From Candidatus Limnocylindria bacterium (GTDB lineage Bacteria > Chloroflexota > Limnocylindria > QHBO01): a stretch of DNA of 41,794 nt. Each line of letters opens with the position of its first letter. Positions within the stretch are counted from its first letter, which is position 1. The notes below the pieces were generated by a model. The model saw only the letters and a program-made list of their open reading frames with translations. It ran no database searches and was not told where the DNA came from. Positions 6,503-40,366 of the stretch are shown piece after piece. The translations under genes were made by a program, and so were the position numbers. Location of the stretch: assembly GCA_051000335.1 (NCBI GenBank), contig JBPCOK010000090.1:1-41794 (forward strand), written 5' to 3'.

Positions 6503-7885
6503 CTAGGAAGTCGGTGCCTCGGCCGGGCCGATGCGGACGGTCTGGATGTTCGTGAACTCCCAGATTCCGTGCCGTCCGAGCTCGCGGCCGTAGCCGCTGC
6601 GCTTCACGCCGCCCATCGGCATGCGGGGATCCGACGCCACCAGGCCGTTGACGAACACCGATCCCGCCTCGATGCGTCGGGCGATCTGCTTCGCGGCATC
6701 CAAATCGCGGGTCCAGACCGCAGCGCCCAGCCCGTACTCGGTGTCGTTGGCGAGGGTAACCGCGTGCTCGACGTCCCGCGCCCGAATGAGGGCGGCCACC
6801 GGGCCGAAGGTCTCCTCGCGAAAGGTGGGCATCGCGTCGGTCACACCGTCGAGGACCGTGGGCGCGTAGAAGTAGCCGCGGCCGGCAACGCGATCGCCGC
6901 CCACGAGCGGCTCGGCGCCCATGCCGCGCGAATCGTCGACCTGGCGCTCAAGCGTGTCGCGCAGATCGGCGCGGGCCAGCGGGCCGACGTTCGTGTCACG
7001 CGACGCCGGGTCGCCGACCCGCAGGGCGCGCACCGCATCGGCGAACCGCTGTCCGAACTCATCGGCGACGGCCTCCTCCACGATGAACCGCTTGGCGGCG
7101 ATGCAGCTCTGCCCGCTGTTCTGGTTCCGCGCCCGCGCCGCGGTCCGGGCGGCGTAGTCGAGGTCCGCATCGGCAAGGACGATGAAGGGGTCCGATCCGC
7201 CGAGCTCGAGCACCTGCTTCTTCAGCCGCGCCGCGGCGAGGGAGGCGATCCGCGCTCCGACCTCCGACGACCCGGTGAGGGTCACGGCGTCGATCCGGGG
7301 GTCATCGACCAGCCGCTCGGTGCCCGATCCTGCCACGAGCACGGTGCGCAGCAGGCCGGTCGGGAATCCCGCGTCGCGCAGGACCTCCTCGCAGGCGAGT
7401 GCGGACTGCGGGACGTTCGAGGCGTGCTTGAGGACCATGCCGTTGCCGGCCATGAGGGTCGGCGCGCCCGCCCGGAACACCTGCCAGAACGGGAAGTTCC
7501 ACGGCATGATCGCCAGGATCGTGCCGAGCGGCTCGTAGGCGACGTAGCTCTCGAGCGATTCGGTCTCGACCGGGGCGTCCGCCAGGTACTCGGCGGCGTG
7601 TTCGGCGTAGTGGTCGCAGGCGAGGGCGCACTTGTTGACCTCGGCTTCGGCCTCGAGGATGGGCTTGCCCATCTCCGCGGTGATGACGGCGCCGTAGCGC
7701 TCGGCGCGCTCCCGCAGGATCTCGGCTGCGCGGCGCATGGGAACCGCCCGCTCCTCGACGCTCATTGTCCGCCAGACACGCTGCGCGGCCAAGACCTCGT
7801 CCACGGCGTCGTCGACCCGCGCGTCCGACCACGGGTCGAACTGGGCAAGCAGCTCCTCGGTGGCGGGGTTGATCGAGCTGATCAT
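6503..7885 (-). CDS. NAD(P)-dependent aldehyde dehydrogenase, succinate-semialdehyde dehydrogenase (Sad/GabD1) type
   Basis: IMPWNFP, LKHAS, LTGS, ELGGSDP (Glu), SGQSCIA (Cys), EETFGP, GGVKRSGYGRELG. Confidence 0.9.
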   Translation of the reverse strand: MISSINPATEELLAQFDPWSDARVDDAVDEVLAAQRVWRTMSVEERAVPMRRAAEILRERAERYGAVITAEMGKPILEAEAEVNKCALACDHYAEHAAEYLADAPVETESLESYVAYEPLGTILAIMPWNFPFWQVFRAGAPTLMAGNGMVLKHASNVPQSALACEEVLRDAGFPTGLLRTVLVAGSGTERLVDDPRIDAVTLTGSSEVGARIASLAAARLKKQVLELGGSDPFIVLADADLDYAARTAARARNQNSGQSCIAAKRFIVEEAVADEFGQRFADAVRALRVGDPASRDTNVGPLARADLRDTLERQVDDSRGMGAEPLVGGDRVAGRGYFYAPTVLDGVTDAMPTFREETFGPVAALIRARDVEHAVTLANDTEYGLGAAVWTRDLDAAKQIARRIEAGSVFVNGLVASDPRMPMGGVKRSGYGRELGRHGIWEFTNIQTVRIGPAEAPTS

Positions 7886-8394
7886 TCGTCGGCGTTGATG
7901 GCCGATGCCGGCAGGTCGTGCCGGATCACCTTCTCGACTCGCATGCGGATGATCACCCGCTCCTGGCCCTCGTAGCGCTCAGGCTTCGCGTGATAGCGGC
8001 GAGCCAGGTCCATGATGTGGTCGAGCGCGGGCTGGAACTCCGCATCGAGCTCGACCGTGCCGCGCATCGAGACCCAGTACAGGCCGTCCTCGAACATGAG
8101 GGACACGCGCGGATCGGCCTGGAGCTGACGGTACTTCAGGCGTCGGACCATGGTGTTCATGAGGATGACGTCGGGCTCGTCGGGCTCGAGGTCGAACCAC
8201 AGCACCGACTGGCTCGGCGGGCCGTCGCCGGTGTTGACGGCGAGGACGGGGTAGCGTAGCTCGCTCAGCATCCAGGCGCGGAGGTCGTCGGTCAGCATGT
8301 TGCCGACCGTCAGATCGGGATCGCTCAAGGGGCCTCCTGTCAGGGTCTCCCGCCGCGGGGGCAGCGGACGCGGATTGGGCTCGTGGAATGCCAT
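7882..8394 (-). CDS. PPOX-class (split beta-barrel), probably F420-dependent, oxidoreductase
   Basis: PSQSVLWF, NTMVRRLKYRQLQADPRVSL, WVSMRGTVE, LARRY, ERVIIR. The start may be ATG 8298. The stop overlaps the ALDH start. Confidence 0.8.
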   Translation of the reverse strand: MAFHEPNPRPLPPRRETLTGGPLSDPDLTVGNMLTDDLRAWMLSELRYPVLAVNTGDGPPSQSVLWFDLEPDEPDVILMNTMVRRLKYRQLQADPRVSLMFEDGLYWVSMRGTVELDAEFQPALDHIMDLARRYHAKPERYEGQERVIIRMRVEKVIRHDLPASAINADE

Positions 8395-8421: not shown

Positions 8422-9552
8422 ATGACGAACGTTGAGCTGCTCTCGATCGGCGCCGAGCTCCTGCTCGGGGAGACGGTCGACACGAACGCCGCCTACCTGG
8501 GCTCGGAGCTCGCGACGGTGGGCCTGCCGCTCACCTCGGTGCGGATGGTGCCGGATGATCGAACCGTGATCCGTGACGCGTTCGCCGAGGCGCGGCAGCG
8601 ATCCACCGTCATCCTGGCCACCGGTGGCCTGGGTCCCACGCACGACGATCTCTCACGCGAAGGACTGGCCGATGCGCTGGGCGAGGCACTCGGCCAGGAT
8701 CCTGCCCTCACGGCCGTGCTCCAGGAGCGCTTCCGCAGCACTGGGCCGATGCCATCGAGCAACCTGCGGCAGGCGATGCTCGTGCCATCCGCCGAGCCGC
8801 TGACGAACCCGATCGGATCGGCGCCCGGCTGGTGGGTGGAGCGCGACGGGGTGATCGTGGCCCTCATGCCGGGCGTGCCGTCGGAGATGCGTCGCATGTG
8901 GACTGAACACGTCCGTCCACGTCTCGAGGAACGGTTCGCGCTTCCTGCGCTCGCGATCCGCACCGTGAAGGCGTTCGGCATCGGCGAGTCCGCCATGGCC
9001 GAGCGGCTCGGACCGCTGCTGACGGATCCACCCCTTGGGGTCGATGCCGGGATCTACGCGCGTGACGATGGAGTCCATGCCCGCTTCTCGACGCGCGGCG
9101 ACGCCACGGCGCTCGACCGCTGCGTCGACGAGTCATTGGCACTGCTGGGCGAGAGCGCGTATGGCACCGATGAGGATGACCTGGCAACGGCCGCACTCCG
9201 TCGGCTGGGACAGCTGGGCGCCACGACGCTCGCCAGCTGGGAATCCGATACCGGGGCGGCGCTGCTGGCCATCCTCAGCACGACGGTGCCGCGCGACGGT
9301 GACGCCCGGTATGTCGGCGGCGTCCTCGACATGGGGACGCCATCCGGCCCGCCCATCGCCGATGTCACACTGCAGCTCTCCCTCCTCGAGCAGGACACCG
9401 GCGGCCGAAGCCCGGTTCGCGTGTCATTGAGCGGCCAGCTCTCGATGCCGCCGGTCGAGCTGCGCGTCCATGGGTCCGGGCCGCAGCGCCCCCGGCGGGC
9501 GGCCTTCGCCGCCCTCAACGCGATTCGAGGATTCAGCTCCAGCGGCCGATGA
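8422..9552 (+). CDS. CinA-like protein (MoCF-like N-domain, eroded C-terminal PncC domain)
   Basis: LSIGAELLLGETVDTNA, TGGLGPTHDDLSRE, NLRQA, GSAPG, MPGVPSEM, GIGES. Confidence 0.85.
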   Translation: MTNVELLSIGAELLLGETVDTNAAYLGSELATVGLPLTSVRMVPDDRTVIRDAFAEARQRSTVILATGGLGPTHDDLSREGLADALGEALGQDPALTAVLQERFRSTGPMPSSNLRQAMLVPSAEPLTNPIGSAPGWWVERDGVIVALMPGVPSEMRRMWTEHVRPRLEERFALPALAIRTVKAFGIGESAMAERLGPLLTDPPLGVDAGIYARDDGVHARFSTRGDATALDRCVDESLALLGESAYGTDEDDLATAALRRLGQLGATTLASWESDTGAALLAILSTTVPRDGDARYVGGVLDMGTPSGPPIADVTLQLSLLEQDTGGRSPVRVSLSGQLSMPPVELRVHGSGPQRPRRAAFAALNAIRGFSSSGR

Positions 9553-10411
9553 GGCGCACGGCCCGCGGGAGGACCTCGAAGGTCCACGACGCTCTCGACC
9601 CGAGCGCGTCCCCGTCCGCCTGCACCGGAATCCGGGAGCCGTCGAGCGTCCTAAGCTCGACGCGTTGCGCATCGATCCGCTCGGCATCGGGTCGCGCGCC
9701 GATCGCCCAGCGCATGGCCTCGACGGCGAGCCGATGGATGGGCCCGGAGTAGACCCGCATCGCAATTCGGCCCGCATCGACGCGCGCCCCGGGATTCACC
9801 CTGAGCCCGCGGCCATAGAACGGGGTCGTGCCGACAACGAGCAGCTCCATCGGACCGCGGTGCACGACCCAGCCGTCAGCGCGGACCTCGACCGCGACGC
9901 GGCGCCAGAGGTCGGGCACGGACTTCGTCACCGCCGCGGCCCACCCGCGGAGGCGTTTCGCGCCGGCATCGGCGTAACGGGCAGCGACCAGGGCATCCCA
10001 TCCGGCGCCGGCGAAGAGCGCCAGCCGACCGTCCACCGACACGAGGTCGACGGGTCGCACGTCACGCCGCTCGAGGACGTCGACCAGCTCCTCGGGGCGG
10101 CTGGGAAGGTGGAGAAGGTGGCGCGTGGCGTTGCCGAAGCCCGCGGGCAGGTAGCCCAGCACGAGGTCGGAACGCCCGGCCGCGACGTTGTAGGCGACGC
10201 TGAGCGAGCCATCTCCCCCGGCGATCACCGCGGTCTCGTAGTCGCCGATGCGCTCGCCGAGCCACGCGGTCAGCTCGGCGACGTCACGCGTGGCGACCAC
10301 GTGCAGGTCGGCGTCGAGCGCGTGACGCGCCAGGTCGACGGCCTGCCGGACGTGGGCGCTCCGAGCGCTGCCGGCTCCCTCGTTGAGGAAGACGGCAGCG
10401 CGTTCGGCCAC
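9533..10411 (-). CDS. Diacylglycerol kinase family lipid kinase
   Basis: FLNEGAG, AGGDGS, LPAGFGNA, FAGAGWDA, YGRG, QADGD. Confidence 0.85.
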   Translation of the reverse strand: MAERAAVFLNEGAGSARSAHVRQAVDLARHALDADLHVVATRDVAELTAWLGERIGDYETAVIAGGDGSLSVAYNVAAGRSDLVLGYLPAGFGNATRHLLHLPSRPEELVDVLERRDVRPVDLVSVDGRLALFAGAGWDALVAARYADAGAKRLRGWAAAVTKSVPDLWRRVAVEVRADGWVVHRGPMELLVVGTTPFYGRGLRVNPGARVDAGRIAMRVYSGPIHRLAVEAMRWAIGARPDAERIDAQRVELRTLDGSRIPVQADGDALGSRASWTFEVLPRAVRLIGRWS

Positions 10412-11049
10412 TACGGAAGGGCAGACAGGATCTCGGCCGCCTGCGCCTCCGTGCCGGTCATGAAGTAGACCGTGTCGTCCTTCACATAGAGGTACACCGA
10501 AGCACCCGTCGAGCCGGTAGCGTCAGCGGCCGTCCACACGTCCTTGCCCCCGATGGTGGCGCGCTCCGCACCCTCGATGTCACCGGAGTCCTGGCTCGCC
10601 GCCAGGAACTCCTGCTCGAGCTGGTCCTCGGACACTCCGAGCACCCGGAACGCGGCAACGCTGATCGAGCCGTCCACGGTCCCGCCGAAGGCGACCGAGA
10701 CGTCGTCCAGCTCGGCTCCCGTGGCATCCAGGAAGTCCTGGAACGTTTCGTCAACGCCTCCGCCCGCGACGAGGGTGTCGCCACGGAAGCTGATGACCTG
10801 GAGCTGCGCTCCGCCCACCGTGGTCGGAAGGCGCGCGGCGAGCTCGGGGTCACCGTTGATGTCGAACGACGGGATCGCCACATCCGATGACCCGGGATCG
10901 GTCGGCGAGGCCGTCTCGGCTTCCGTCGGCTCGGGGGTCGGGCTGCTCGTTGCCTCCGGCTCGGTCGGCGAGGGGCTGGCCGTATCGCTCGAGCACGCGC
11001 TGATCACGAGGGCCAGCACCGCGACGAGCAGGAAGGAAGTGCGCTTCAA
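10411..11049 (-). CDS. Lipoprotein of unknown function with Pro/Thr/Ser-rich linker
   Basis: TTG start after SD GAGGAG; lipobox VISAC; PTEPEATSSPTPEP linker. Confidence 0.7.
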   Translation of the reverse strand: MKRTSFLLVAVLALVISACSSDTASPSPTEPEATSSPTPEPTEAETASPTDPGSSDVAIPSFDINGDPELAARLPTTVGGAQLQVISFRGDTLVAGGGVDETFQDFLDATGAELDDVSVAFGGTVDGSISVAAFRVLGVSEDQLEQEFLAASQDSGDIEGAERATIGGKDVWTAADATGSTGASVYLYVKDDTVYFMTGTEAQAAEILSALP

Positions 11050-11109
11050 GTTGATCTCCTCAGGGTGTGCAGCCGATGCAGGATAGACGCCCACGGCCGA
11101 ATCGCCTAC

Positions 11110-12501
11110 TCACGTGCGGCCCAGCAGCTCACCGGTCGGCGCGCGCTTCATGAACTTACCGTCGCCCGCGGCGCCCAGCCATTCGTCGCCGTCCACGATC
11201 ACCTTGCCGCGCGAGAGGACGATCTCGGGCCTGCCCGTCACCTCGCGACCCTCGTAGCACGAATAGTCCACGTCCATGTGATGGGTCTTGGCGCTGATCG
11301 TGTGCCTGGCTTCCGGGTCGTACACCACCAGGTCCGCATCGGCGCCGATCCCGACCACGCCCTTGCGTCCCTCGAGGCCGAACATGCGCGCGGGTGCGGC
11401 GCTGATCACCTCGACCCAGCGGTTCGGGGTCATGTATCCGTCGACGACGCCTCCCGAGTGGAGCAGGTTCACGCGGTCCTCGACGCCGGGAAGGCCGTTC
11501 GGCACCTTGCGGAAGTCGCCCTTGCCCAGATCCTTCTGGCCGTGGAAGTCGAACGGGCAATGGTCGGTGGACACGACCTGCAGGTCATCCTTGGCCAGGC
11601 CCTTCCACAGCTCGGCGGCATGCTCGGCCGGACGAAGCGGGGGCGAGCACACGAACTTCGCTCCCTCGAAGCCGTTGCCCATGTCCTCGAGCGTCAGGAA
11701 CAGGTACTGCGGGCAGGTCTCGGCGTAGGCCGGCAGGCCCTCGTCGCGAGCCCGGCGCACCTCGTTGAGGGCGTCGATGGCCGACAGGTGGACGATGTAG
11801 ACCGGCACGCCGGCGACCTGCGCCAGGCGGATGACGCGGTTCGTGGCCTCGCCCTCCATGACGGGAGAGCGGCTGGTCCCGTGGTAGTACGGGTCGGTGT
11901 TGCCAGCATCCACGCTCTGGGCGGCCACGACATCGATCGCCATCCCGTTCTCGGCATGCATGAGGATCAGCCCGCCGTTCTTCGCGGTCTGCTGCATGGC
12001 CCGGAAGATGGCGCCGTCGTCGCTGTAGAAGACGCCCGGATAGGCGGTGAAGAGCTTGAAGTCGGTCACACCCTCGTCGACGAGGGTGTCCATCTCGGCC
12101 AGCGTCTCGTCGGTGACGTCGCTCATGATCATGTGGAAGCCGTAGTCGACGCACGCGTTGCCCTCGGCCTTCGCGTGCCATGCGTCGAGGCCCTCGCGCA
12201 GCGACTGCCCCTTGCCCTGCACGGCGAAGTCGATGATCGTCGTCGTTCCGCCGAACGCCGCCGCGCGCGTGCCCGTCTCGAACGTGTCCTTGGCCGCGGT
12301 CCCGCCGAAGGGCAGCTCCATGTGGGTATGCACGTCGATCGCGCCGGGAATCACCCACTTGCCCGATGCGTCCACCGTCCGATCGGCCTCGACCCCGAGA
12401 TCTCTGCCGATGAGCGCGATGCGCTCCCCGTCCACGAGCACGTCCGCGGACGTCGTCGCATCCGCGTTGACGATCGTTCCACCCTTGATCAGCGTGCGCA
12501 T
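11110..12501 (-). CDS. hydA: Dihydropyrimidinase / D-hydantoinase
   Basis: PGAIDVHTH, GGTTTIIDF, FKLFTAYPG (carboxylated Lys), HAENG, VHLS, ETCPQYL, STDHCPF. SD GGAGG before MRTLIKGG. Confidence 0.95.
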   Translation of the reverse strand: MRTLIKGGTIVNADATTSADVLVDGERIALIGRDLGVEADRTVDASGKWVIPGAIDVHTHMELPFGGTAAKDTFETGTRAAAFGGTTTIIDFAVQGKGQSLREGLDAWHAKAEGNACVDYGFHMIMSDVTDETLAEMDTLVDEGVTDFKLFTAYPGVFYSDDGAIFRAMQQTAKNGGLILMHAENGMAIDVVAAQSVDAGNTDPYYHGTSRSPVMEGEATNRVIRLAQVAGVPVYIVHLSAIDALNEVRRARDEGLPAYAETCPQYLFLTLEDMGNGFEGAKFVCSPPLRPAEHAAELWKGLAKDDLQVVSTDHCPFDFHGQKDLGKGDFRKVPNGLPGVEDRVNLLHSGGVVDGYMTPNRWVEVISAAPARMFGLEGRKGVVGIGADADLVVYDPEARHTISAKTHHMDVDYSCYEGREVTGRPEIVLSRGKVIVDGDEWLGAAGDGKFMKRAPTGELLGRT

Positions 12502-12604
12502 CGATGCCTCCGTCGTTTCCTTCCGGGAGGCCGCCATCCTAGCGCCGCCGCTGGGTCGCCGGAGGCTGACGGCGCCATGCGTCGACTCTGGGGCGATCAC
12601 TGTT

Positions 12605-12644
12605 CTGTCAGGCGTTATATCGGTAGTGATATATCGGCTGACAG
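12605..12644. promoter_or_regulatory. AT-rich 17-bp imperfect inverted repeat, candidate operator
   Basis: CTGTCAGGCGTTATATC-ggtagt-GATATATCGGCTGACAG (2 mismatches) between the divergent hydA and HhH-GPD genes. Confidence 0.5.
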
Positions 12645-12745
12645 CGTGGAGGACGCGTCGCGCGGGCGAGCGAAGCAGTCCTCCGAAAACCGTCGGCTGC
12701 CACGCGCCGGTCGGTGCTCAGGACGGTGCGGAGTAGGATGTGTGC

Positions 12746-13306
12746 GTGACCGATCGACTCCATTTCACCGGTGACGACGACGCCGACCGGCTGCTCGTCT
12801 CCGACCCGATGGCGCTGCTCATCGGCTTCGCGCTCGACCAGCAGGTCCCGGTCCAGAAGGCGTTCTCCGGTCCGAAGGTCCTCCTCGAGCGACTGGGTAC
12901 GCTCGACGCCCGGGAGCTCGCGGCCGTCGACGAGGCGAAACTCGAGGCGGCGGCCAAGGGGCCGCCGGCGATTCATCGATTTCCGTCCGCGATGGCGAAG
13001 CGGGTACGGGAGCTCGCCGCCTTCGTCAGCGGCACCTACGACGGGGATGCCGCCCGGATCTGGACCGGTGCCGCCGACGCCCGAGATCTCAAGCGCCGGC
13101 TCGGCGCGCTCCCCGGCTTCGGCGATATGAAGGTCGCGTCGATGTTCGCCGTGCTCGTGCGGCGCCTGGGGGTGGAGCTACCGGGGGCGCAGGACGAGCT
13201 GCCGGACCACCCGACGCTGGGCGACGTCGACTCCCCAGCGGCCCTCGCCGAGTACCAGGCCACGAAGCGGGCTCACAAGGCGGAACTCCGCGCCGCGAGG
13301 GGCTGA
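12746..13306 (+). CDS. HhH-GPD-type base-excision repair family protein (TIGR03252-like)
   Basis: LHFTGDDDADRLL, LLIGFALDQQVPVQKAFSGP, PPAIHRFPSAMA, LPGFG, DVDSPAAL. Confidence 0.85.
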   Translation: MTDRLHFTGDDDADRLLVSDPMALLIGFALDQQVPVQKAFSGPKVLLERLGTLDARELAAVDEAKLEAAAKGPPAIHRFPSAMAKRVRELAAFVSGTYDGDAARIWTGAADARDLKRRLGALPGFGDMKVASMFAVLVRRLGVELPGAQDELPDHPTLGDVDSPAALAEYQATKRAHKAELRAARG

Positions 13307-13327
13307 CGCGCACCGACCTCTGCCCCA

Positions 13328-14425
13328 TCAGGCACGGTAGCGGAGGGTGGCACCGATCCCCTCGTGCCGACGCAGACCGTCGTGGTCGCGGACGACCTCC
13401 ACACGCGCGTCGGTCAGGGCGGCCTGGCGGACCAGCTCCGCCCGAAGATCCTCGTCGATCTCGACCGTCTCGTCGATGACGAGCTCGTCCACCTGCCCAG
13501 CCTCGAGCGCCGCCATGGTGCGGTCCATGCCGACCGTGCCGAGGTCATCGGCGCGCCAGCCGGCGAGAGCCCGATCGGCGACGTCCGTGCCATCTGCTTC
13601 CTCGAGCGCCGAGAGGATCGGTGCGATCTCCTCGCGGACGTCCTGCACCCGGGCGCGCATGTCGATGCGTGCCAGGTGTTCCACGAGCGGCCGGACGGTA
13701 CCCGACAGCTCCGGATCGAGGACGGAGATCACCCGCTCGTCGCCGGCGAGGATGACGTGCTGCGGCTTCTCGCGCCGCACGAGCCGGTCGATCGCCCCGG
13801 CCGCTTCCTTGGCGAAGCGCCGGTCCTGCATGTCGATGTGGCGCTGGAAGCGCGCTTGCGACCAGCCACCGGTGTCACGGCGTTCGTGCTCTGCGTTCGG
13901 CTCGTCGGGGCCCGACCGCTCCCGCAGGCCACCGCGACGGGTGACGAACAGTCGGCAGGTGTTCGTGTCGACCACCGCGACGACCGCGCTCACCTGGTCG
14001 TCGAGGAGCCGCGCCAGCCCGAACAGGTCGGCGGTCGGTCCGGCGGAGATGTGCGTCTCGAGCGCCACTTCCGCCCCGATCCCCTCCCACAGACCGATGC
14101 GGTCGCAGGCGAAGATCGCCATCCCATCGACTGCGTTCAGCTCCTCGGACGCCAACAGCTCCTCGATCCTCCGCCGATCCGCCTCGAACGACTCCCGCGC
14201 CGGACCGCGCACATCGAGCCCATCGGCGATGGCGTCGAGCCGGTCGCGCGCGATGACGAGCTGATTCCGCTCGCCGGGCCGCTCGCCGTGCACCTCAGGG
14301 CGCACGTCGATGATGCAGCTCAGGATCGGCGCGTCGGTGGAAATGACCCCGGCCAGCCGATTCAGGAGGTCTCGGAGGAACGCCTGGTCGGGGCCGAGCT
14401 TCGTGGTCGCGGGAGTGGTGCTCAT
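13328..14425 (-). CDS. Bacterial eRF1-like (baeRF / Vms1-type) peptidyl-tRNA hydrolase family protein
   Basis: GGWSQARFQRH loop, ALEAGQVDELVI, EGIGATLRY C-terminus. Confidence 0.8.
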   Translation of the reverse strand: MSTTPATTKLGPDQAFLRDLLNRLAGVISTDAPILSCIIDVRPEVHGERPGERNQLVIARDRLDAIADGLDVRGPARESFEADRRRIEELLASEELNAVDGMAIFACDRIGLWEGIGAEVALETHISAGPTADLFGLARLLDDQVSAVVAVVDTNTCRLFVTRRGGLRERSGPDEPNAEHERRDTGGWSQARFQRHIDMQDRRFAKEAAGAIDRLVRREKPQHVILAGDERVISVLDPELSGTVRPLVEHLARIDMRARVQDVREEIAPILSALEEADGTDVADRALAGWRADDLGTVGMDRTMAALEAGQVDELVIDETVEIDEDLRAELVRQAALTDARVEVVRDHDGLRRHEGIGATLRYRA

Positions 14426-14482
14426 GCGGTTCTAGGGAGCAAGGCGTGTGCCGCGTGGAGATCCCCTGCTACTGTCCACCCC

Positions 14483-15109
14483 ATGAACGAGCGCCTCCTC
14501 GCTTTGGTCCGCATCGGCTTCGCGATGCTCGTCGTGGCCGCGACCGTGGCGCAGATCGCGAACCTGGTCGACGACGGGGTCTTCAACCCCACTCGCTTCT
14601 TCCTCTTCTTCACCGTCCTTTCGAACCTTTTCGCCGCCGGGGTCTTCGCCGAGGGAGCTCGACGCCAGCTCGTGGGCGCCGAGCCCGTCGGTGACCTGTG
14701 GCGCGGCGCCGCGGTCGTGTTCATGGCCGTCACGTTCATCGTGTTCGCGGTGCTGCTGCGCGGGCTCCAGGAAGAGCTCCAGACGAACATCGTGTGGGTC
14801 GACACCGTCCTGCATCGGATCATGCCGGTGGCGATCATGGCCGATTGGCTGATCGAGCCGCCGCACGGCCCGCTCCCCTACCGACGCGTCCTCGTCCCGT
14901 GGCTGGGTCCGCCCCTGGCCTGGACGACGCTCACGCTCATCCGCGGCGCCGTCGACGGCTGGTACCCGTACCCGTTCCTGGACCCCGCGAATGGCGGCTA
15001 CGGCGTGGTCGCGCTGTATGCCGTGGCGATTTTCGTGCTGCTCCTCGGGGTCATCTGGATCGCGGCAACCAGCGGAACCGCCCTGCGAGACCGCCGCCGC
15101 GAGGCCTGA
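14483..15109 (+). CDS. Pr6Pr / FAR-17a-like membrane protein
   Basis: FFLFFTVLSN, LHRIMPVAIMADWL, RGAVDGWYPYPFLDP; multiple TM segments. Confidence 0.8.
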   Translation: MNERLLALVRIGFAMLVVAATVAQIANLVDDGVFNPTRFFLFFTVLSNLFAAGVFAEGARRQLVGAEPVGDLWRGAAVVFMAVTFIVFAVLLRGLQEELQTNIVWVDTVLHRIMPVAIMADWLIEPPHGPLPYRRVLVPWLGPPLAWTTLTLIRGAVDGWYPYPFLDPANGGYGVVALYAVAIFVLLLGVIWIAATSGTALRDRRREA

Positions 15110-15115
15110 CCGCTC

Positions 15116-16120
15116 CTACCCCAGCGCACCCTGGCCGATGATGCGCTCGCCGTACGCGGCCAGCTGCTCCTCTTCCTCGCCGTTCATCAGGTAGTTGTTG
15201 AACTGCGTGACGCCGGCCTCGCGCAGCTCGGCGAGGCGCTCGAGATGCGCCGATGCGGGGCCGATGATCGCGAACCGGTCGGTGATCTCGTCGGAGACGA
15301 ACCGCGCGTTGTCGCTGCCCACCTCCGCGTGGTGGTGGTAGTCGTATCCCTCGCGGTCCTCCGTGTACTTCCAGAGTGCCTCGGGCAGCTCGTCCTTCGG
15401 ATAGCGATTGATCAGGTCCACCACGTGATTGCTGACGAGGGCCGGGAACCAACGGACCTTATCGCGCGCGGCGCCGATATCGTCCGCCACGTACGCCGGC
15501 GCGGCCGCCATGACCTCGAACCCGTTCGGATCCCTGCCGGCCTCCTCGGCGCCCGCTCGGACGAAGCCCATGCACCAGCGGATGATGTCGGGATCGGCGA
15601 GCTGGAGAATGATGCCATCGGCGACGCGGCCGGCCGCGGCCAGCGCCTTCGGACCGTAGCCCGCCACCCAGACCTTGACCGGGCCGCCGTTGTCCTTCGC
15701 CCAGCCCATCTGGATCTCGGTCCCATCCAGGGTGACCGGGTCTCCGGCGGTGAGCGATCGGATGGCGGTGCAGGCCTGCTCCATGTACGCGACCGTCATC
15801 GGCTTCTTGCCCGCGACACGGACGGCGGAGTCGCCGCGGCCGATGCCGAGATCCATCCGGCCACCGCTGATCTCGTTGAGCGTGGCGAGCACGGATGCCG
15901 TGACCGTGATATCGCGCGTGCCGGGGTTCGTGACGCAGGTCCCGAAGCGCATCCGCTCCGTCGCCTGGGCCATGAGCGTGAGGAGCGGATAGGGCTCGCG
16001 CCACAGGATGTGGCTGTCGAACAGCCAGCCGTGCGCGTGGCCGGTGGCTTCCGCGCGCTTCGCCAGGTCGACCGAGCGCTCCCACCGATGCTCGGGCTTG
16101 AGCGTGAAGCCGAAGTTCAT
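15116..16120 (-). CDS. LLM-class F420-dependent oxidoreductase, TIGR03842 (Mer-related) family
   Basis: WLFDSHILWREPY, GTCVTNPGTRD..VTAS, GIGRGDSAVR, AGYGPKAL, ILQLADP, WFPALVSNH, GYDYHHH, DEITDRF. SD GGAG. Confidence 0.85.
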   Translation of the reverse strand: MNFGFTLKPEHRWERSVDLAKRAEATGHAHGWLFDSHILWREPYPLLTLMAQATERMRFGTCVTNPGTRDITVTASVLATLNEISGGRMDLGIGRGDSAVRVAGKKPMTVAYMEQACTAIRSLTAGDPVTLDGTEIQMGWAKDNGGPVKVWVAGYGPKALAAAGRVADGIILQLADPDIIRWCMGFVRAGAEEAGRDPNGFEVMAAAPAYVADDIGAARDKVRWFPALVSNHVVDLINRYPKDELPEALWKYTEDREGYDYHHHAEVGSDNARFVSDEITDRFAIIGPASAHLERLAELREAGVTQFNNYLMNGEEEEQLAAYGERIIGQGALG

Positions 16121-16157
16121 GTCTCCTGCGTCGCCTCCGTTGCATGGTGTGCCGCTG

Positions 16158-16285
16158 CGCGCCAACCAGGTTGGCGTTGTGCCCGTCGAAAATCTGCTCG
16201 TGGGATGTCCGGCCAACCCCGATGGCGCCGCGACCGGTGAACCGACCTCTTCACGCTACCGCCGGTCACAATGCCATCTCGGTGG
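16158..16285 (-). repeat. 128-bp double-hairpin intergenic element, copy 1
   Basis: Shares colinear blocks with 40238-40366: CCACCGRGAT, GGCATTGYGACC, GGTCGC..CGCC, TTGGC, CACAACGCCAACCWGGYTGGCGCG. Confidence 0.75.
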
Positions 16286-16300
16286 GCGTCCAACGCGAAT

Positions 16301-17149
16301 TCAGGGCCGAACGAGGTCGTCGTACGCATCAGGCCGGCGGTCGCGATAGAACTGCCAGAGCTGCCGGACTTCGGTGACCTTGTCGAGGTCGAGATCGCGG
16401 ACGATGAGCTCCTCGTCGTGCGCATCGCCGACGTCCCCCACGAACTGGCCGCGCGGATCGGCGAAGTAGGACTGCCCGTAGAAATCGTTGTCGCCCAGCG
16501 GCTCGATGCCGACCCGGTTGATGGTGCCCACGTAGTAGCCGTTCGCCACCGCGTGTGACACCTGCTCGATGCGCCACAGGTACTCGGACAGGCCGCGTGA
16601 CGTGGCCGAGGGGATGAACACCAACTCGGCGCCGTTGAGGCCCAACGCCCGGGCGCCCTCCGGGAAGTGCCGGTCATAGCAGATGTAAACGCCGACCTTG
16701 CCCACCGCCGTTTCGAAGACCGGATAGCCGGTGTTGCCGGGACGGAAGTAGAACTTCTCCCAGAAGCCCTTGACCTGGGGGATGTGCGTCTTGCGGTACT
16801 TGCCCAGGTATGTGCCATCGGCGTCGATCACGGCGGCGGTGTTGTAGTAGATGCCCTGGGCGTGCTCGTCCTCCTCGTACATCGGCACGATGAGGACCAT
16901 CCCGGTCTCCTTGGCCAGCTCCTGCATCCGCTTCGTGGTCGGACCGTCGGGGATGTGCTCGGTGTAGCTGAAGTACTGCGGGTCCTGGACCTGGCAGAAG
17001 TAGGGGCCGTAGAACAGCTCCTGGAAGCACATCACCTTCGCGCCCTGGGCAGCGGCCTCGCGCGCGTACTTCTCGTGCTTCTCGATCATCGACTCTTTGT
17101 CGCCGGTCCACTCCGCCTGGAGCAGCGCCGCTCGGACAGTTCGCGCCAT
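16301..17149 (-). CDS. Nitrilase-superfamily hydrolase, beta-ureidopropionase-like
   Basis: Triad FQELFYGPYFC (E), YRKTHIP (K), ICYDRHFPEG (C); FWEKFYFRPG; NRVG. Confidence 0.88.
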   Translation of the reverse strand: MARTVRAALLQAEWTGDKESMIEKHEKYAREAAAQGAKVMCFQELFYGPYFCQVQDPQYFSYTEHIPDGPTTKRMQELAKETGMVLIVPMYEEDEHAQGIYYNTAAVIDADGTYLGKYRKTHIPQVKGFWEKFYFRPGNTGYPVFETAVGKVGVYICYDRHFPEGARALGLNGAELVFIPSATSRGLSEYLWRIEQVSHAVANGYYVGTINRVGIEPLGDNDFYGQSYFADPRGQFVGDVGDAHDEELIVRDLDLDKVTEVRQLWQFYRDRRPDAYDDLVRP

Positions 17150-17303
17150 CTGGTCTCGACCTCCGCAGAGCCGATTCGGCCCTCAGTGACAACTGAATGG
17201 AAGCCGATACTCTACACCGGGGGGAGCGCAGGCCAGGCCGATGCCGATGGCGCCGGAGGTGTAGGGACGGGGTGATGGCCGTTCGACGGTGTGCCCGCGG
17301 TCG

Positions 17304-17753
17304 TCAGCCGCCGGGCCAGCCGATCGCGTCGCAGATCGGGTCCGCGGCCTGGCGGAACTCAACATGATCATCCGCGCTCTCGGGGAAGTCGAGCTCGTCC
17401 CATGCGTCCTCGAGGGCGCTGACACCAGTCTCGCCGACGAGAACCCGATTGATGAGAAGGGCGGGATCGCCGGGCCAGTACTCGGCATCGTCTGCCCAGC
17501 GGCAGACTGTATCCATGAGGTCCTGCTGATCAACTGTGAGGTCGGCCAAGGCAAGGGTCGATGCGCTCGGTGACGGAGGTGCCGTCGGCTGCGGAGGGGC
17601 CGTTGGGGTGGGCGAGCTCACAACGGTCGCGGTGGCTGTCGGATCAGTCGTCGGCTCGGAGGTGGTCGTCGTTTGCGCAGCACAGGCGGATACGAGCAGC
17701 AGGACCGCGACGAGCAGGAGCGGGAGACGGCAGGACATCGGAGGGCGCCTCAT
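17304..17753 (-). CDS. Small lipoprotein of unknown function
   Basis: Lipobox LVSAC, Thr/Pro linker, small C-terminal domain with two Cys. Start is 17753 or 17738. Confidence 0.6.
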   Translation of the reverse strand: MRRPPMSCRLPLLLVAVLLLVSACAAQTTTTSEPTTDPTATATVVSSPTPTAPPQPTAPPSPSASTLALADLTVDQQDLMDTVCRWADDAEYWPGDPALLINRVLVGETGVSALEDAWDELDFPESADDHVEFRQAADPICDAIGWPGG

Positions 17754-17827
17754 TGCATCAGAGCGAATGGACCGCCGTGACTTTCGGCGCGGCAAGCGAG
17801 TTATGGCGACGGGGTCCAGCTCAGGGG

Positions 17828-18526
17828 TCACGAGCCCGTCCCCGATGCACGCTCCTCGAGCAGCTTCGCCAGGTCGGTGATCAACTTGAACGTGGCCTCC
17901 CGATCGTCGACGCCGCTCCACAGCATGTTCACGACCACATCGCCCTCGACGAACATGACCAAGTCTGCCTCTCCCCGTGGACCGGCGCAGACGAACGCTG
18001 CGCTCGCCTGCCCGATGGGCGTATCCATCGTCTCGTCGGAACAGACCTCGTACTCCTGCGTCTCTGCCTCGAGGAAGTCGCGGGCACCGTCAGCCGTTTC
18101 GAACACGCGTGCCTGACTCCCGAGCAACTCGCCCGAGCCGTCAGCAGCCTCGAAGGTGCGCGAGTGACCGCCCATGAAGCCGAACGACTCGAGAGCGGCG
18201 CGGCGCGGCGGCCCCTCCTCCGGACCGTAGAGCTCCTCCTCCGACTCCAGTGTGATCTCCGATTCATCCGTCTGCTGGAACTGCCCGGGAACGTCCTCCA
18301 CCATCAGCACCAGGTCGATCGGCTCGAGGGCCGCCTCGGTTGGTGACGCCGAAGGCGACGGCTCCGGCGTCGGCGACGTGGTGGGATCAGCCGTCGGCGA
18401 AGCGCTGTCGGCAGGCGTGGCGGGAGCGCTCGGGCTCGCGGATGGGGTCGTGCTGCAGGCGGCCAGGCCAAGTGCCGCGGTCGCGCACATCGCGATGAGT
18501 CTGGATCGAATCATGAGCAGTCGCAT
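17828..18526 (-). CDS. Lipoprotein of unknown function
   Basis: Lipobox LAAC, SPT/PEP linker, acidic globular domain. The upstream extension of the track ORF is the shadow of the protease gene. Confidence 0.65.
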   Translation of the reverse strand: MRLLMIRSRLIAMCATAALGLAACSTTPSASPSAPATPADSASPTADPTTSPTPEPSPSASPTEAALEPIDLVLMVEDVPGQFQQTDESEITLESEEELYGPEEGPPRRAALESFGFMGGHSRTFEAADGSGELLGSQARVFETADGARDFLEAETQEYEVCSDETMDTPIGQASAAFVCAGPRGEADLVMFVEGDVVVNMLWSGVDDREATFKLITDLAKLLEERASGTGS

Positions 18527-18623
18527 CCTGACGGGGATCATAGCGGGCCAATCCTGCAGGTGCCGCACAAGCACCAACCGCCCGAGCCGGGTAGGCTGGC
18601 TAACGTTTCCGCAACGGTCCATC

Positions 18624-19799
18624 ATGAATCTGCTCGATCTCGCAGTCCTCCTGTTGCTCGTGGTGGGCATCGTGTCGGGTGCGCGCGCCGGCTTCCTCGG
18701 TCCGGTGCTCGGGCTGGCCGGCGCCGCCATCGGCTTCGGGATTGGGCTCGTGATGGCCACGCTCTTCCGCGAGCAGCTCGCCCAGATCGAGCAGCCAATG
18801 CCGGCCATCGTCACGCTCGTCGGCCTCGCAACCTTCGTGCTGGTCGGTGAGGCAGCCGGGGCGGCGGCCGGTGCCACCATGAGCCTGGGGCTCCACCGCA
18901 GCGGCCTGCGTCCGATCGACGCCGTCGGCGGCGGCGTGGTCGGGGCCGCGCACGTCGCCCTCCTCGTCTGGATCGTGAGCGGGATGCTGGCGGTGGGGAT
19001 GGCGCCGAGCATCGGTGCCGCTGCTCGAGAGTCGATCACGGTGCGCCTGGTGACCGATCGACTCCCGCCGCCGACGATCATCGCCGGACGTCTGCTCACT
19101 CTCCTCGACAGCACGGACGTGCCGCAGCTGTTCGGCGGCCTCGAACCACCGCCGGCCGCGCCCGTCGACCTTCCGGCGGACGCCGAGGCGGCCGCGCTCG
19201 CGCAGTCGGCGCTTGCCAGCACCGCCCGGATCTCGAGCAGCGGCTGCGGCAACGGACTCGCGGTCGGGAGCGGATTCTTCGTCTCGCCGACCGCGATCAT
19301 GACCAACGCCCACGTCGTGGCCGGTGCAACGGAGACCACGATCACCGTGGGCGGCTCGGTTCACGCCGCCACCGTCGTGGCGTTCGATCCGGAGGCCGAC
19401 CTGGCCCTCCTGAACGCGCCGAGCGCCAGCGGTCCGCCCCTCCGGCTGCTCGCGACCGCTCCGCTGCGCGGGTCGACCGGCGTCGCGCTCGGCTATCCGG
19501 GCGGTGGCGATCTCACGGTGACCCCGGCGGCGGTGACCGCCAGCTATCGCATCGCGGGGCCGAGCATCTACGGCGAGGGCGCCGGGGAGCGCAGCGTCGT
19601 CGAGATGACGACCCAGATCCGGCGCGGCAACAGCGGCGGTCCCCTCGTGGTCGAGCCGGGCGTCGTCGGCGGCGTGGTGTTCGGCGCATCGCGCGTGTCA
19701 GCCGACGTTGGCTACGCGATCGGGTCGGATCAGGCCCTCGAGCGCATCGGCCCGTCGATTGGATCGACCGCGCCGGTCGGCACCGGCGCCTGCCTGTAG
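18624..19799 (+). CDS. MarP-like membrane serine protease (CvpA-like TM domain + trypsin domain)
   Basis: MNLLDLAVLL TM start; GSGF, TNAHVVAG (His), DLALL (Asp), GNSGGPL (Ser); Cys pair SSGCG / GACL. Confidence 0.9.
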   Translation: MNLLDLAVLLLLVVGIVSGARAGFLGPVLGLAGAAIGFGIGLVMATLFREQLAQIEQPMPAIVTLVGLATFVLVGEAAGAAAGATMSLGLHRSGLRPIDAVGGGVVGAAHVALLVWIVSGMLAVGMAPSIGAAARESITVRLVTDRLPPPTIIAGRLLTLLDSTDVPQLFGGLEPPPAAPVDLPADAEAAALAQSALASTARISSSGCGNGLAVGSGFFVSPTAIMTNAHVVAGATETTITVGGSVHAATVVAFDPEADLALLNAPSASGPPLRLLATAPLRGSTGVALGYPGGGDLTVTPAAVTASYRIAGPSIYGEGAGERSVVEMTTQIRRGNSGGPLVVEPGVVGGVVFGASRVSADVGYAIGSDQALERIGPSIGSTAPVGTGACL

Positions 19800-20422: not shown

Positions 20423-21175
20423 TCAGGTCGGCGCGAGCGTCCCCGCGAAGATCTGCCAGGCCAGGGCCGACTTCGCCGTCAGGCTCAGGAGCACGTAGGC
20501 GCGCTCCCCGAAGAGGTAGTCGCGCCACGGGCCGACCTGCCGGTACTGCAGGACCATGTTCAGTGCGAAGGAGTTGAAGAACAGGAAGAGCGACACGAAG
20601 ATCGCGTAGACGAAGGCCGGCGGCTCGGCGGCCGTGGTGGGGCTCCACAGGTAGATGCCGATGAGGACCCACGGCACGGCCCCCGCGATCGAGCCGAAGA
20701 TGAACGGCAGCCACCCCGGTCGCCCCGGTCGCTCATACTTCTCCTGGAGGAGACCGAAGAGGATCATCGAGGCGTTGACGCCGAAGATCGCGCCCAGCGC
20801 CGCCACGTCGGCAATGCCGGTCAGCATGGCGATGAGGACAATCATCAGCGACGAGCTGAATGCGTACTCGATCCAGCGCGCGTAGTTGCGGCCCTCGCCG
20901 AGCTGACGCGCGTAGAAGCCGTACGCCGGCCCACCGACGACGAAATGCGCGATCGCCGAGAGGAACAGGAATGCGGCGATCGCCGGGCCGATCGGCAGCG
21001 TGAAGAGCTCGGTCGTCGTCGCGGGCGACCCCGGCGGACCCTCCATGAATGCCGCGGTCACCGGCAGGGCGAAGTCGTTCGAGAGCACGAGAACCGCGAC
21101 TCCCTGCACTGCGTGTAGCACCCCCATCGCGAGGTTGTACAGACGAAGCCTGCCGACGCGGGCGGTGTCGGTCAT
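20423..21175 (-). CDS. Heliorhodopsin
   Basis: Basic N-terminus, LHAVQG, AHF, NYARWIEYAFSSSLM, FGLLQE, FNSFALN, GERAYVLLSLTAKSALAWQ (retinal-binding Lys in SxxxK); 7 TM. SD GAGGAG. Confidence 0.95.
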   Translation of the reverse strand: MTDTARVGRLRLYNLAMGVLHAVQGVAVLVLSNDFALPVTAAFMEGPPGSPATTTELFTLPIGPAIAAFLFLSAIAHFVVGGPAYGFYARQLGEGRNYARWIEYAFSSSLMIVLIAMLTGIADVAALGAIFGVNASMILFGLLQEKYERPGRPGWLPFIFGSIAGAVPWVLIGIYLWSPTTAAEPPAFVYAIFVSLFLFFNSFALNMVLQYRQVGPWRDYLFGERAYVLLSLTAKSALAWQIFAGTLAPT

Positions 21176-21365
21176 GTCGATCTCCTCTCGGGCAGGAATA
21201 TGGATGGTCCGTCGGATCACCCACCGGTACGGACGGACGAGTCCGCCGCATGATCCGACATCGGCCTCGACGCGACCGGTAGACTGGGTCACACCTATTC
21301 GGCCCGAGTGAATCACTCGCGGCGGCGACCGGAGGGAGCCGTCGCCACGAACCGAGGAGGATCCG

Positions 21366-22373
21366 ATGTCCATGTCATTCGGTCGCCACCGAGCGGCCGC
21401 TGCCCTGCTGCTGGGCGCGCTCTTCGCGCTGTCAGCCTGCACCGCGATCGATGGCGGTGACTCATCGAATGCCCCGGATGCCACTGCCGGTGGCGGCGGC
21501 GGAGGCCAGCTCGTCATCGCCACCGGCGGCACCGGCGGCGTGTACTACCCGCTGGGCGGCGGGCTCGCCAACGTCATCGGCGATAACGTCGAGGGAACCA
21601 CCGCGACGATCTCCGAGACGAACGCATCGGTCGACAACATGCTCCTCATCCAGGACGGCGGGGCAGACATCGCGTTCGTGCTGGGCGATACCGCGTCGGA
21701 CGCCGTCGCCGGGGCAGGTGCCGACTTCGACGGCAACCCGGTCGACGCCTGCGCCCTGGGGGCGCTGTACAACAACTTCACCCAGCTCGTCGCGAGCGCC
21801 GATGCCGGCGTCGCCAGCGTCAACGACCTGGCGGGCAAACGCGTCAGCCTGGGATCCCCGGGCAGCGGGACCGAGGTCATCGGACTGCGCATTCTCGAGG
21901 CGGCCGGGATCGATCCCGACGCTGACATCGAGCGGGCGCAGCTGGGCGTGGCCGAGACAGTCGAGGCCCTCCGCGACGGGACGATCGATGCCGGATTCTG
22001 GTCCGGCGGTCTGCCGACCGGCGCCCTGGTCGACTACGCGTCCACCGGGAACATGGTCCTCGTGCCGACGGGCGAGTACGCGTCCGCCATGGCCGATGCC
22101 TACGGCGAGTACTACCTCGAGGACGCGATCCCCACGGACACGTACGAGGGCATGGACGGAGACGTCTCCACCGTGGTCGTCCCCAACGTCCTCGTCGTGA
22201 ACACCTCCATGGACGAGCAGCTGCAGCGGGACATTACCGCCGTGCTCTTCGAGCAGAAGGATGCACTGGTCGACGTGCATCCCGCCGCGAATGCGTTCGA
22301 CCCTGCGGTCGCCCAGGACGTCACGTTCATCGACCTGTGCCCGGGGGCGCAGGCGTACTACGACGAGGGCTGA
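21366..22373 (+). CDS. TAXI-family TRAP transporter solute-binding lipoprotein
   Basis: Lipobox LSAC, IATGGTGGVYYPLG, ASVDN, LAGKRVSLGSPGSGTE, LCPGAQAYY. Confidence 0.92.
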   Translation: MSMSFGRHRAAAALLLGALFALSACTAIDGGDSSNAPDATAGGGGGGQLVIATGGTGGVYYPLGGGLANVIGDNVEGTTATISETNASVDNMLLIQDGGADIAFVLGDTASDAVAGAGADFDGNPVDACALGALYNNFTQLVASADAGVASVNDLAGKRVSLGSPGSGTEVIGLRILEAAGIDPDADIERAQLGVAETVEALRDGTIDAGFWSGGLPTGALVDYASTGNMVLVPTGEYASAMADAYGEYYLEDAIPTDTYEGMDGDVSTVVVPNVLVVNTSMDEQLQRDITAVLFEQKDALVDVHPAANAFDPAVAQDVTFIDLCPGAQAYYDEG

Positions 22374-29734: not shown

Positions 29735-29744
29735 GGAGCGATCG

Positions 29745-39249: not shown

Positions 39250-39541
39250 CTAGCGCCCGCCCGCGAACGGGACCAGCCCGACGACGGCCAGCATGACGAG
39301 GATCACGCCGACCCCGAGGATCGTCGCCTGCGTCCGCCCCATCCTGCCGGGCGGGGGCTGGGCCGCCACTTGGCCCCCCCCGGGGGGGGGACGCGACGAT
39401 GAGCAGGGTGGCCACCGGCCCGAGGAAGAGGGGCGCAAGCCACCAGTTCAGGCCGGAGCGCTGCTTGGACTGGGCGAGCCCGGCGTGGACGAGCGTGAGC
39501 GTGAACCACGCCGCAGACCCGGAGACGTAGGCGTCCTGCAT
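39250..39541 (-). pseudogene. Small membrane protein apparently frameshifted at a C8G9 tract
   Basis: N-part AGLAQSKQRSGLNWW..LFLGPVATLLIV lies in one frame; the hydrophobic C-part TILGVGVILVMLAVVGLVPF* lies in another. The junction is the homopolymer at 39374-39390. Confidence 0.55.
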
Positions 39542-39556
39542 GCGCGGATCCCACGC

Positions 39557-40207: not shown

Positions 40208-40237
40208 CTGCCGAGTCTACCGTCGGGGTCGAGCGTG

Positions 40238-40366
40238 CCACCGGGATTGGCATTGCGACCGCCGGGCTGCCGTCGTCGCCGGCCCATGGGTCGCTACGCC
40301 CATGTGATTGGCGTTTCGACCGCCGGCCCGCCTCCCGTCGGTCACAACGCCAACCAGGCTGGCGCG
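40238..40366 (+). repeat. 129-bp double-hairpin intergenic element, copy 2
   Basis: TTGGCATTGCGACC-N28-GGTCGCTACGCC...TTGGCGTTTCGACC-N18-GGTCACAACGCCAA; colinear with 16158-16285. Confidence 0.75.

Follow-up and report, generated by a model that had tools for sequence, protein, structure and literature searches.

A TIGR03842 luciferase-like oxidoreductase as the probable first enzyme of reductive pyrimidine catabolism in Limnocylindria and other soil and freshwater bacteria

The stretch of DNA analysed here, 41,794 nucleotides long and called the window below, is a whole contig (JBPCOK010000090.1; C172 in our numbering) of a Chloroflexota metagenome-assembled genome (MAG), Candidatus Limnocylindria bacterium, whose 2.2-Mb assembly consists of 202 contigs and is 76% complete. 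The nearest relatives of this source genome are Chloroflexota MAGs labelled Limnocylindria, and the GC content of the window is about 69%. On its minus strand lie the three genes with which this work is concerned: a carbon-nitrogen (CN) hydrolase (16301-17149; PF00795, 224 bits), a luciferase-like monooxygenase-family (LLM) oxidoreductase of the family TIGR03842 (15116-16120, in an open frame to 16216; PF00296, 212 bits) and a dihydropyrimidinase or D-hydantoinase (11110-12501, in an open frame to 12600; TIGR02033, 560.7 bits against a cut-off of 393.25). We propose that the LLM, the dihydropyrimidinase and the CN hydrolase would catalyse the first, second and third steps of reductive pyrimidine breakdown, the last of them as an N-carbamoyl-beta-alanine amidohydrolase.

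A first-pass annotation of this DNA had described a nitrilase, an LLM and a dihydropyrimidinase on one strand within 6 kb, and all three were found as placed. The hydrolase and the LLM are adjacent genes 180 bases apart and likely form a transcription unit. The dihydropyrimidinase is likely transcribed separately: the three genes are not one operon, and an HhH-GPD base-excision gene on the plus strand (12740-13306; TIGR03252, 167 bits) and a baeRF-family gene on the minus strand (13328-14425; PF18854, with a weak match to Rv2629-type hibernation factors) separate it from the LLM. The HhH-GPD gene is kept in most close relatives, at the same place and on the opposite strand. The LLM likely starts at the ATG at 16120, just 3' of a GGAGG/AGGAG motif, and both the TIGR03842 model and the reductase Mer, discussed below, align from residue 33 or 34 of the open reading frame (ORF); the dihydropyrimidinase likely starts at the ATG at 12501, with GGAGG upstream. 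The gaps at 14426-15115 and 17150-18630 contain no convincing coding frame and no Pfam match, a promoter and terminator scan of 10800-18300 gave nothing exceeding shuffled controls, and no Rfam family matched anywhere in the window.

The membership of the LLM in TIGR03842 (F420_CPS_4043), already suspected in the first-pass annotation, was confirmed by hidden Markov model with 417.4 bits against a cut-off of 295.45; the alignment spans positions 1-327 of the 329 in the model and is the sole match above cut-off in the genome. The protein has roughly 334 residues and forms a TIM barrel with no flavin or Fe-S domains, and a phmmer search of 1.84 billion representatives yielded 417 relatives at E <= 1e-30. 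Among proteins of solved structure it is nearest in sequence to Mer enzymes (118 bits), followed by the F420-dependent hydroxymycolate dehydrogenase, Adf and FGD1. An AlphaFold model built with 29 sequences reached a predicted local distance difference test (pLDDT) score of 93.8, and in the fold search made with it the Mer structures came out best, at a template modelling (TM) score of about 0.8, ahead of other F420 enzymes and then of flavin mononucleotide (FMN) monooxygenases. Every entry listed at ranks 1-29 is an F420-dependent Mer, FGD or Adf, and FMN enzymes begin at rank 30. By its fold and its nearest relatives the LLM is a member of the F420-dependent LLM class.

Mer (PDB 1z69, 1f07, 8qpl) is thus its best match in both sequence and fold, and the motifs common to the two are in the N-terminal half of the barrel. 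Mer is a reductase that uses F420H2, as the window LLM presumably does too. That the LLM could be Mer itself was rejected, because it scores 154.3 and 135.6 bits against equivalog cut-offs of 276 and 348.7. Where Mer has Glu6, mutated in the E6Q entry 8qq8, the window protein has Thr, and this column is variable across the 29 family members; unlike Mer, the family is found in hosts that are not known methanogens or methylotrophs. The invariant or nearly invariant residues specific to the family include Asp35, Val63-Thr-Asn-Pro66, Arg69, Arg95-Gly-Asp97, Arg223-Trp-Phe225, Asn231-His232 and Tyr259/Tyr261. No DHO_dh match was obtained for the LLM, which is therefore not a member of the PreA/PydA-type dihydropyrimidine dehydrogenases (DPDs), built of a DHO_dh FMN barrel and Fe-S clusters; it may do the work of a DPD while not belonging to that family.

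The best NCBIfam match of the CN hydrolase is N-carbamoylputrescine amidase, with 276 bits against a cut-off of 410, and it falls below every equivalog cut-off. Its nearest solved relatives are the N-carbamoylputrescine amidohydrolase 5h8i (219 bits), Drosophila beta-alanine synthase 2vhh (190 bits) and human beta-ureidopropionase (171 bits), while D-carbamoylases reach only about 85-90 bits. The triad Glu44-Lys120-Cys157 aligns with these relatives, the Cys with the residue changed in the 5h8k variant, and on alignment evidence we assign the enzyme to the clade of beta-ureidopropionase and N-carbamoylputrescine amidase. Compared with the Acidimicrobiia loci (L097-L176), the hydrolase is 73-78% identical, the LLM 45-52% and the dihydropyrimidinase 49-56%; the high value for the hydrolase may mean that this gene is conserved to an unusual degree, or that it alone was transferred more recently. 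The solved structure nearest to the dihydropyrimidinase is a D-hydantoinase (1yny, 495 bits). A second hydantoinase-like gene exists in the source genome (G000:C63:2117-3421, L094), just below the TIGR02033 cut-off with 387.8 bits, and most same-family genomes also have this second copy.

Candidates for the later steps and for uptake are present in the source genome in scattered form, the pathway being split into pieces within 25 kb and one enzyme being located on another contig. The aminotransferase, the ABC system, the NMT1-like binding protein and the cofCDE genes named in the first-pass annotation all agree with profile matches. The class-III (omega) aminotransferase of the PRK06062 subfamily (27544-28878, plus strand; PF00202, 308 bits; NF004718, 562 bits against a cut-off of 472) is a candidate beta-alanine or beta-aminoisobutyrate aminotransferase and would serve step 4; aminotransferases of the same type lie within the LLM operons of relatives (L112, 759 bits; L181, 530 bits). 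Next to it on the plus strand an ABC importer is encoded by a permease (28862-29734), an ATPase (29712-30578) and a second permease (30575-31405) that match PF00528 and PF00005, and the NMT1/THI5-like solute-binding protein at 34778-35896 (plus strand; PF09084, 105 bits) is its probable partner. The ATPase is 54-68% identical to the one encoded directly 3' of the LLM in Acidimicrobiia operons, and NMT1/THI5-like binding proteins are found inside the LLM operons L112, L192 and L194 (115-132 bits). The aldehyde dehydrogenase (ALDH) reported earlier in the window does exist, at 6503-7885, but it resembles succinate-semialdehyde dehydrogenases and is not the methylmalonate-semialdehyde dehydrogenase (MMSDH) of the pathway, which resides on contig C48 (724 bits). 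In relatives the ALDH of the operon is a CoA-acylating MMSDH (TIGR01722, 703 and 626 bits against a cut-off of 448.5). An NCS1 nucleobase permease stands beside the cluster at L181 in Chloroflexota and L036 in Blastocatellia (PF02133, 410 and 412 bits), and a PucR-type regulator at L187. In the annotated parts of operons L112 and L181 we saw no other unassigned oxidoreductase. With all steps of reductive pyrimidine catabolism but the first accounted for in these operons, the LLM is the one recurring enzyme that has no step.

The association of the LLM with the hydrolase and the dihydropyrimidinase extends far beyond the window. We examined the neighbourhoods of the best 80 of 146 relatives of the window LLM, mostly from Chloroflexota, and found a CN hydrolase upstream on the same strand in 73 of them, within 300 bases in 47; six of the seven misses have no more than 560 bases of upstream sequence. 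A dihydropyrimidinase lies within 10 kb on the same strand in 57/80, and 16 of the 23 misses have one side cut short. A second set comprised the best 80 of more than 585 relatives of the representative P0002 (574 bits on TIGR03842), all of them Actinomycetota records and mostly Acidimicrobiia. Here the order is hydrolase, dihydropyrimidinase, ALDH, LLM, ABC permease and ABC ATPase, with the aminotransferase further on and on the other strand; the hydrolase was seen in 53, the dihydropyrimidinase in 55 and the ALDH in 58 of the 80, most misses falling at contig ends. Twenty more regions, fetched from the phylum samples described below and picked for the closeness of LLM and dihydropyrimidinase, so that they are no measure of linkage, have the dihydropyrimidinase in 19 cases and the hydrolase in 15. 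Altogether the three genes are kept together in at least six gene orders, and the linkage spans three phyla. In an unrooted tree of 29 family members a well-supported clade (100/99) mixes rows from Chloroflexota and Actinomycetota, four of its five rows (L181, L189, L191 and L192) sharing the order LLM, hydrolase, dihydropyrimidinase, which fits transfer of the cluster as a unit.

Co-occurrence across whole genomes was counted in two samples, one of 201 Chloroflexota genomes including the source genome and one of 201 Actinomycetota genomes centred on G201. TIGR03842 was counted above its cut-off and, in Chloroflexota, the dihydropyrimidinase-type gene at E <= 1e-100. The LLM family is present in 31 of the 201 Chloroflexota genomes, distributed over 10 family-level groups, and a dihydropyrimidinase-type gene in 77: all 31 LLM-positive genomes have one, as do 46 of the 170 LLM-negative ones. 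In 26 of the 31 the two genes share contig and strand at less than 10 kb, and in the other five they are on different contigs of fragmented assemblies. The Actinomycetota counts are similar in kind, with TIGR03842 in 39/201 and the dihydropyrimidinase in 56/201, that is, in 39/39 LLM-positive and 17/162 LLM-negative genomes, and no LLM in any of the 145 genomes devoid of dihydropyrimidinase. In 33 of these 39 genomes the pair shares a contig at a distance within 10 kb; of the other six pairs, three are split between contigs and three have 12-50 kb between their members. These Actinomycetota tallies take in genomes flagged as unpublished (G293 in the LLM rows; G223, G325 and G375 in the dihydropyrimidinase rows), and the pattern is the same without them. 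The co-occurrence of the family with dihydropyrimidinase that the first-pass annotation had anticipated was thus borne out in both phyla, in 70 of 70 genomes over the two samples.

Most of the Chloroflexota genomes that have a dihydropyrimidinase-type gene but no LLM can be explained by a different pathway. According to PMC12507026, SsnA marks reductive uric-acid breakdown, in which HyuA of the TIGR02033 type has a different role. SsnA is present in 33 of these 46 genomes, and this SsnA-linked role of HyuA explains most of them. For the window itself the uric-acid pathway was rejected: the source genome has no SsnA (TIGR03314), the best match being guanine-deaminase-like with 50.7 bits, and SsnA is found in none of the 13 same-family genomes.

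DPD, the FMN/Fe-S enzyme of the known pathway, occurs as PreT/PreA, as mammalian-type PydA and as the ferredoxin-dependent clostridial PydAc. The whole source genome was searched in six frames with the DHO_dh and PreA (NF006183) models, the latter of which detects the PreA of E. coli as a control. The one strong DHO_dh match is a quinone-type PyrD and a weak second one is HisF; nothing matched PreA, and no PreA partner accompanies a truncated GltD-like Fe-S protein. As the source genome is incomplete, its relatives weigh more in this question, and in the 13 same-family genomes, whose completeness is 94-99%, no PreA-like match reached E <= 1e-50. The absence of a PreT/PreA/PydA-type gene, which had been reported for the window, therefore applies to the whole genome and to all 13 of these near-complete relatives. 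PreA above cut-off was likewise found in 0/201 sampled Actinomycetota genomes and in none of five other genomes that bear the operon (four from Acidimicrobiia, one from Blastocatellia). In Chloroflexota it was found in 3/201, G145, G032 and G071, and in the first two it lies next to or near the dihydropyrimidinase-type gene. An anticorrelation between the LLM family and DPD, as the first-pass annotation had expected, is thus visible in these low counts, but it is broken by G071, which has both, and blurred by G080, which has a PreA-like gene below cut-off.

The supply of F420 points in the same direction. CofD is encoded in all 31 TIGR03842-positive Chloroflexota genomes, and the family is present in 0 of the 73 CofD-negative ones. 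In the window three genes for the synthesis of the F420 tail are found on the minus strand: cofE (ORF 2542-3555; PF01996, 238 bits), cofC (3297-3902; PF01983, 88 bits) and cofD (3939-4871; PF01933, 157 bits; TIGR01819, 303 bits). The lineage of the source genome, with cofC, cofD and cofE, may assemble its F420 on FO that it scavenges. The reduction proposed here is chemically reasonable for F420, an obligate carrier of hydride (two electrons at a time) whose redox potential is close to that of NAD(P)H.

Starting from the identified genes and their linkage, from the absence of a DPD and from a fold of the F420 class, we infer on genomic grounds the substrate, hydride donor and reaction of the LLM, and we consider it likely that TIGR03842 is an F420H2-dependent uracil/thymine reductase acting at the first step of reductive pyrimidine catabolism. 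Comparative genomics thereby supports the suggestion of the first-pass annotation that the LLM would supply the missing first step. F420H2 bound in the barrel would deliver a hydride to C6 of uracil or thymine while an acid of the enzyme protonates C5, and the 5,6-dihydropyrimidine resulting from this reduction of C5=C6 would be passed to the dihydropyrimidinase for ring opening. The CN hydrolase would then strip the carbamoyl group to give beta-alanine or beta-aminoisobutyrate, and the class-III aminotransferase followed by the CoA-acylating (methyl)malonate-semialdehyde dehydrogenase would complete the route, with uptake through the NCS1 permease or the NMT1-type ABC system. The resemblance to the Pyd pathway would comprise the dihydropyrimidinase, a hydrolase of the beta-ureidopropionase clade, the omega-aminotransferase, the MMSDH, the nucleobase transporters and the proposed chemistry of step 1; the window system differs in having no DHO_dh/Fe-S DPD and in an LLM that presumably uses F420H2 in place of NAD(P)H or ferredoxin. 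The comparative data support the view that the LLM is a non-homologous replacement for the FMN/Fe-S DPD (PreT/PreA, PydA) in the known pathway. A bolder version has, in our view, about an even chance of being right: TIGR03842 would be a new class of DPD whose one subunit, of about 36 kDa, works with F420H2 alone and requires neither flavin nor Fe-S cluster. It would be the chief route by which pyrimidines enter catabolism in Actinomycetota and a large part of Chloroflexota, where the classical enzyme is almost absent, and in the window lineage, which lacks FO synthase, nucleobase catabolism would rely on deazaflavin scavenged from neighbours.

Several observations weigh against this assignment. 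The HhH-GPD and baeRF genes, both unrelated, stand between the LLM and the dihydropyrimidinase in the window and preclude their co-transcription. Elsewhere, seven of the 23 dihydropyrimidinase misses of the first set are genuine, since the whole 10 kb is available on either side, L066 has 10 kb of upstream sequence and no CN hydrolase, and at L132, L145 and L158 of the second set the hydrolase adjoins the LLM with no dihydropyrimidinase within 8 kb. The hydrolase was not seen in five of the 20 fetched regions, whose manner of selection takes weight from their other counts too. Related genomes are not independent, so that we give counts and no statistics. G071 departs most clearly from the anticorrelation: it combines the LLM cluster with a PreA of 614 bits (C8:33596-34792) in an open frame of 915 residues, possibly a fused DPD. 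G080 combines the cluster with its PreA-like gene of 288 bits. CofH, the FO synthase (TIGR03551), gave no match in the source genome or in its relatives G009, G022, G034, G053 and G131, which are 95-99% complete (CofG was not searched separately), and F420 supply in the window lineage would consequently depend on imported FO. Characterised F420-dependent LLMs other than Mer act mostly on alcohol or carbonyl substrates and not on C=C bonds. Lastly, an attempt to reproduce in vitro the activity of SSGG-03002, a mureidomycin enzyme with a comparable proposed reaction, failed (PMC10714638).

That enzyme, SSGG-03002/NpsU, is also one of two published precedents for the chemistry. By the account in PMC10714638, genetic evidence shows that this putative F420/FMN oxidoreductase is needed to reduce the C5-C6 bond of the uracil ring in mureidomycins. 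The enzyme of the mureidomycin and napsamycin systems differs from the proposed role of the LLM in acting on a uridyl-peptide antibiotic, in biosynthesis and not in catabolism. The second precedent is a putative F420-dependent LLM, the 'yanthine reductase', which PMC12507026 proposes on bioinformatic grounds in place of a PydA-like enzyme in reductive uric-acid clusters of Chloroflexota. As presented there, it resembles our proposal in that an F420 LLM would stand in for PydA-like dearomatisation of a uracil-type ring. Five SsnA loci were fetched, and in four of them (L199, L200, L202 and L203) the sole LLM-like match is 22-27% identical to the window LLM or to the second LLM of the window, the fifth having no match. 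Judged by these loci, we reject the idea that the 'yanthine reductase' is TIGR03842: the LLMs of the SsnA loci belong to a different subfamily. In families that bear SsnA, such as f9, TIGR03842 is present in 0 of 14 genomes. At the same four loci SsnA is within about 10 kb of cofC/D/E and of the distant LLM-like gene, for which a role in uric-acid breakdown and one in F420 metabolism are both conceivable. Our literature search, which did not cover subscription journals, found no function for TIGR03842 and no F420-dependent pyrimidine reductase.

Of the competing explanations, the one that survives best, though we think it unlikely, is that the cluster degrades another cyclic amide and that the LLM is the reductase of that compound, be it a 5-substituted or modified pyrimidine, orotate (via dihydroorotate and carbamoyl-aspartate), a hydantoin, or maleimide or another unsaturated cyclic imide. 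TIGR02033 enzymes include broad D-hydantoinases and imidases, and the solved structure closest to the window enzyme is itself named a D-hydantoinase; allantoin permease models give the next-highest scores for the NCS1 permeases, and a CN hydrolase that stays below all equivalog cut-offs does not fix the substrate. The products of the alternative substrates would, however, be aspartate, D-amino acids or succinate, for which the omega-aminotransferase and MMSDH of the operons are not needed, whereas beta-alanine and beta-aminoisobutyrate, the products of uracil and thymine, do need them. The position of the CN hydrolase, much nearer to beta-ureidopropionases than to D-carbamoylases, also speaks for uracil and thymine.

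Somewhat less probable still is a role for the LLM at the far end of the pathway, as an F420-dependent alcohol/carbonyl oxidoreductase that would form the 3-hydroxy acid from malonate or methylmalonate semialdehyde, as RutE/YdfG does in the Rut pathway, with another, unrecognised enzyme reducing the pyrimidine. The window cluster has no adjacent semialdehyde dehydrogenase, and the solved F420-dependent LLMs among the fold matches include alcohol, sugar and hydroxymycolate dehydrogenases (Adf, FGD1, FGD2). Against these stand the lower scores of such dehydrogenases, 47-60 bits compared with 118 for the Mer reductases, and the MMSDH, which already takes care of this intermediate in many operons and in the source genome. 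No other candidate for the pyrimidine reductase recurs in the neighbourhoods, and the tightest linkage of the LLM is to the hydrolase and the dihydropyrimidinase, not to the aminotransferase.

We give little credit to the idea that the synteny is merely inherited and that the LLM has a role unrelated to its neighbours. Unrelated genes do interrupt the cluster in the window and many of the loci come from related genomes, but a linkage that survives at least six rearrangements and three phyla, together with complete co-occurrence in the two phylum samples, is hard to reconcile with it. RutA, the pyrimidine monooxygenase of the Rut pathway, acts on uracil and is luciferase-like as well, which speaks for a last alternative, an FMN-dependent, RutA-like oxygenase that opens or modifies the ring oxidatively. 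Within the window a RutA match was seen only for the second LLM. This is the least credible of the alternatives, because the RutA model TIGR03612 is absent among the 25 listed of the LLM's 28 NCBIfam matches, the top ones being all F420-class families, FMN monooxygenases fall below all F420 enzymes in the fold search, the family is confined to CofD-positive genomes, the dihydropyrimidinase requires a reduced and not an oxidised ring, and RutA, an FMN- and O2-dependent ring-opening oxygenase, has other downstream genes.

Other features of the window deserve mention. The second LLM adjoins cofD on the minus strand (4891-5823) and is TIGR03560-like, with 226 bits just below the cut-off of 231. 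Beside the succinate-semialdehyde-dehydrogenase-like ALDH lies a gene for an F420-type PPOX-class protein (7882-8394, minus strand). A heliorhodopsin gene (20423-21532, minus strand; PF18761, 341 bits) is found near the cluster in many Limnocylindria loci; the match begins at ORF residue 129 and the true start may lie further in. A TAXI-TRAP binding protein is encoded at 21366-22373. The pyridoxal phosphate (PLP)-dependent decarboxylase beside the aminotransferase (25637-27025, plus strand) matches diaminobutyrate decarboxylase and the aspartate 1-decarboxylase PanP weakly; it recurs by the cluster in many Limnocylindria loci and could furnish beta-alanine, or an amine related to it, by a second way. 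No Pfam match was obtained for the long open frames 22971-25214 (minus), 9470-10468 (plus), 10411-11094 (minus) and 39293-40411 (plus); homologues of the frames at 9470 and 10411 occur in the corresponding position of related loci.

Taken with the genomic context, these data suggest that an LLM of the TIGR03842 family probably performs the first step of pyrimidine reduction in many soil and freshwater bacteria. If this is true, a reaction would be given to an uncharacterised family found in about one fifth of the sampled Actinomycetota (39/201) and one sixth of the Chloroflexota (31/201), and a hole in the pathway would be filled for a phylum in which 56 of 201 genomes have a dihydropyrimidinase and none a PreA-type DPD. 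The enzyme would be a simple, one-protein pyrimidine reductase of use in biocatalysis, and nucleobase catabolism would join the roles of F420 known in aerobic bacteria of soil and fresh water.

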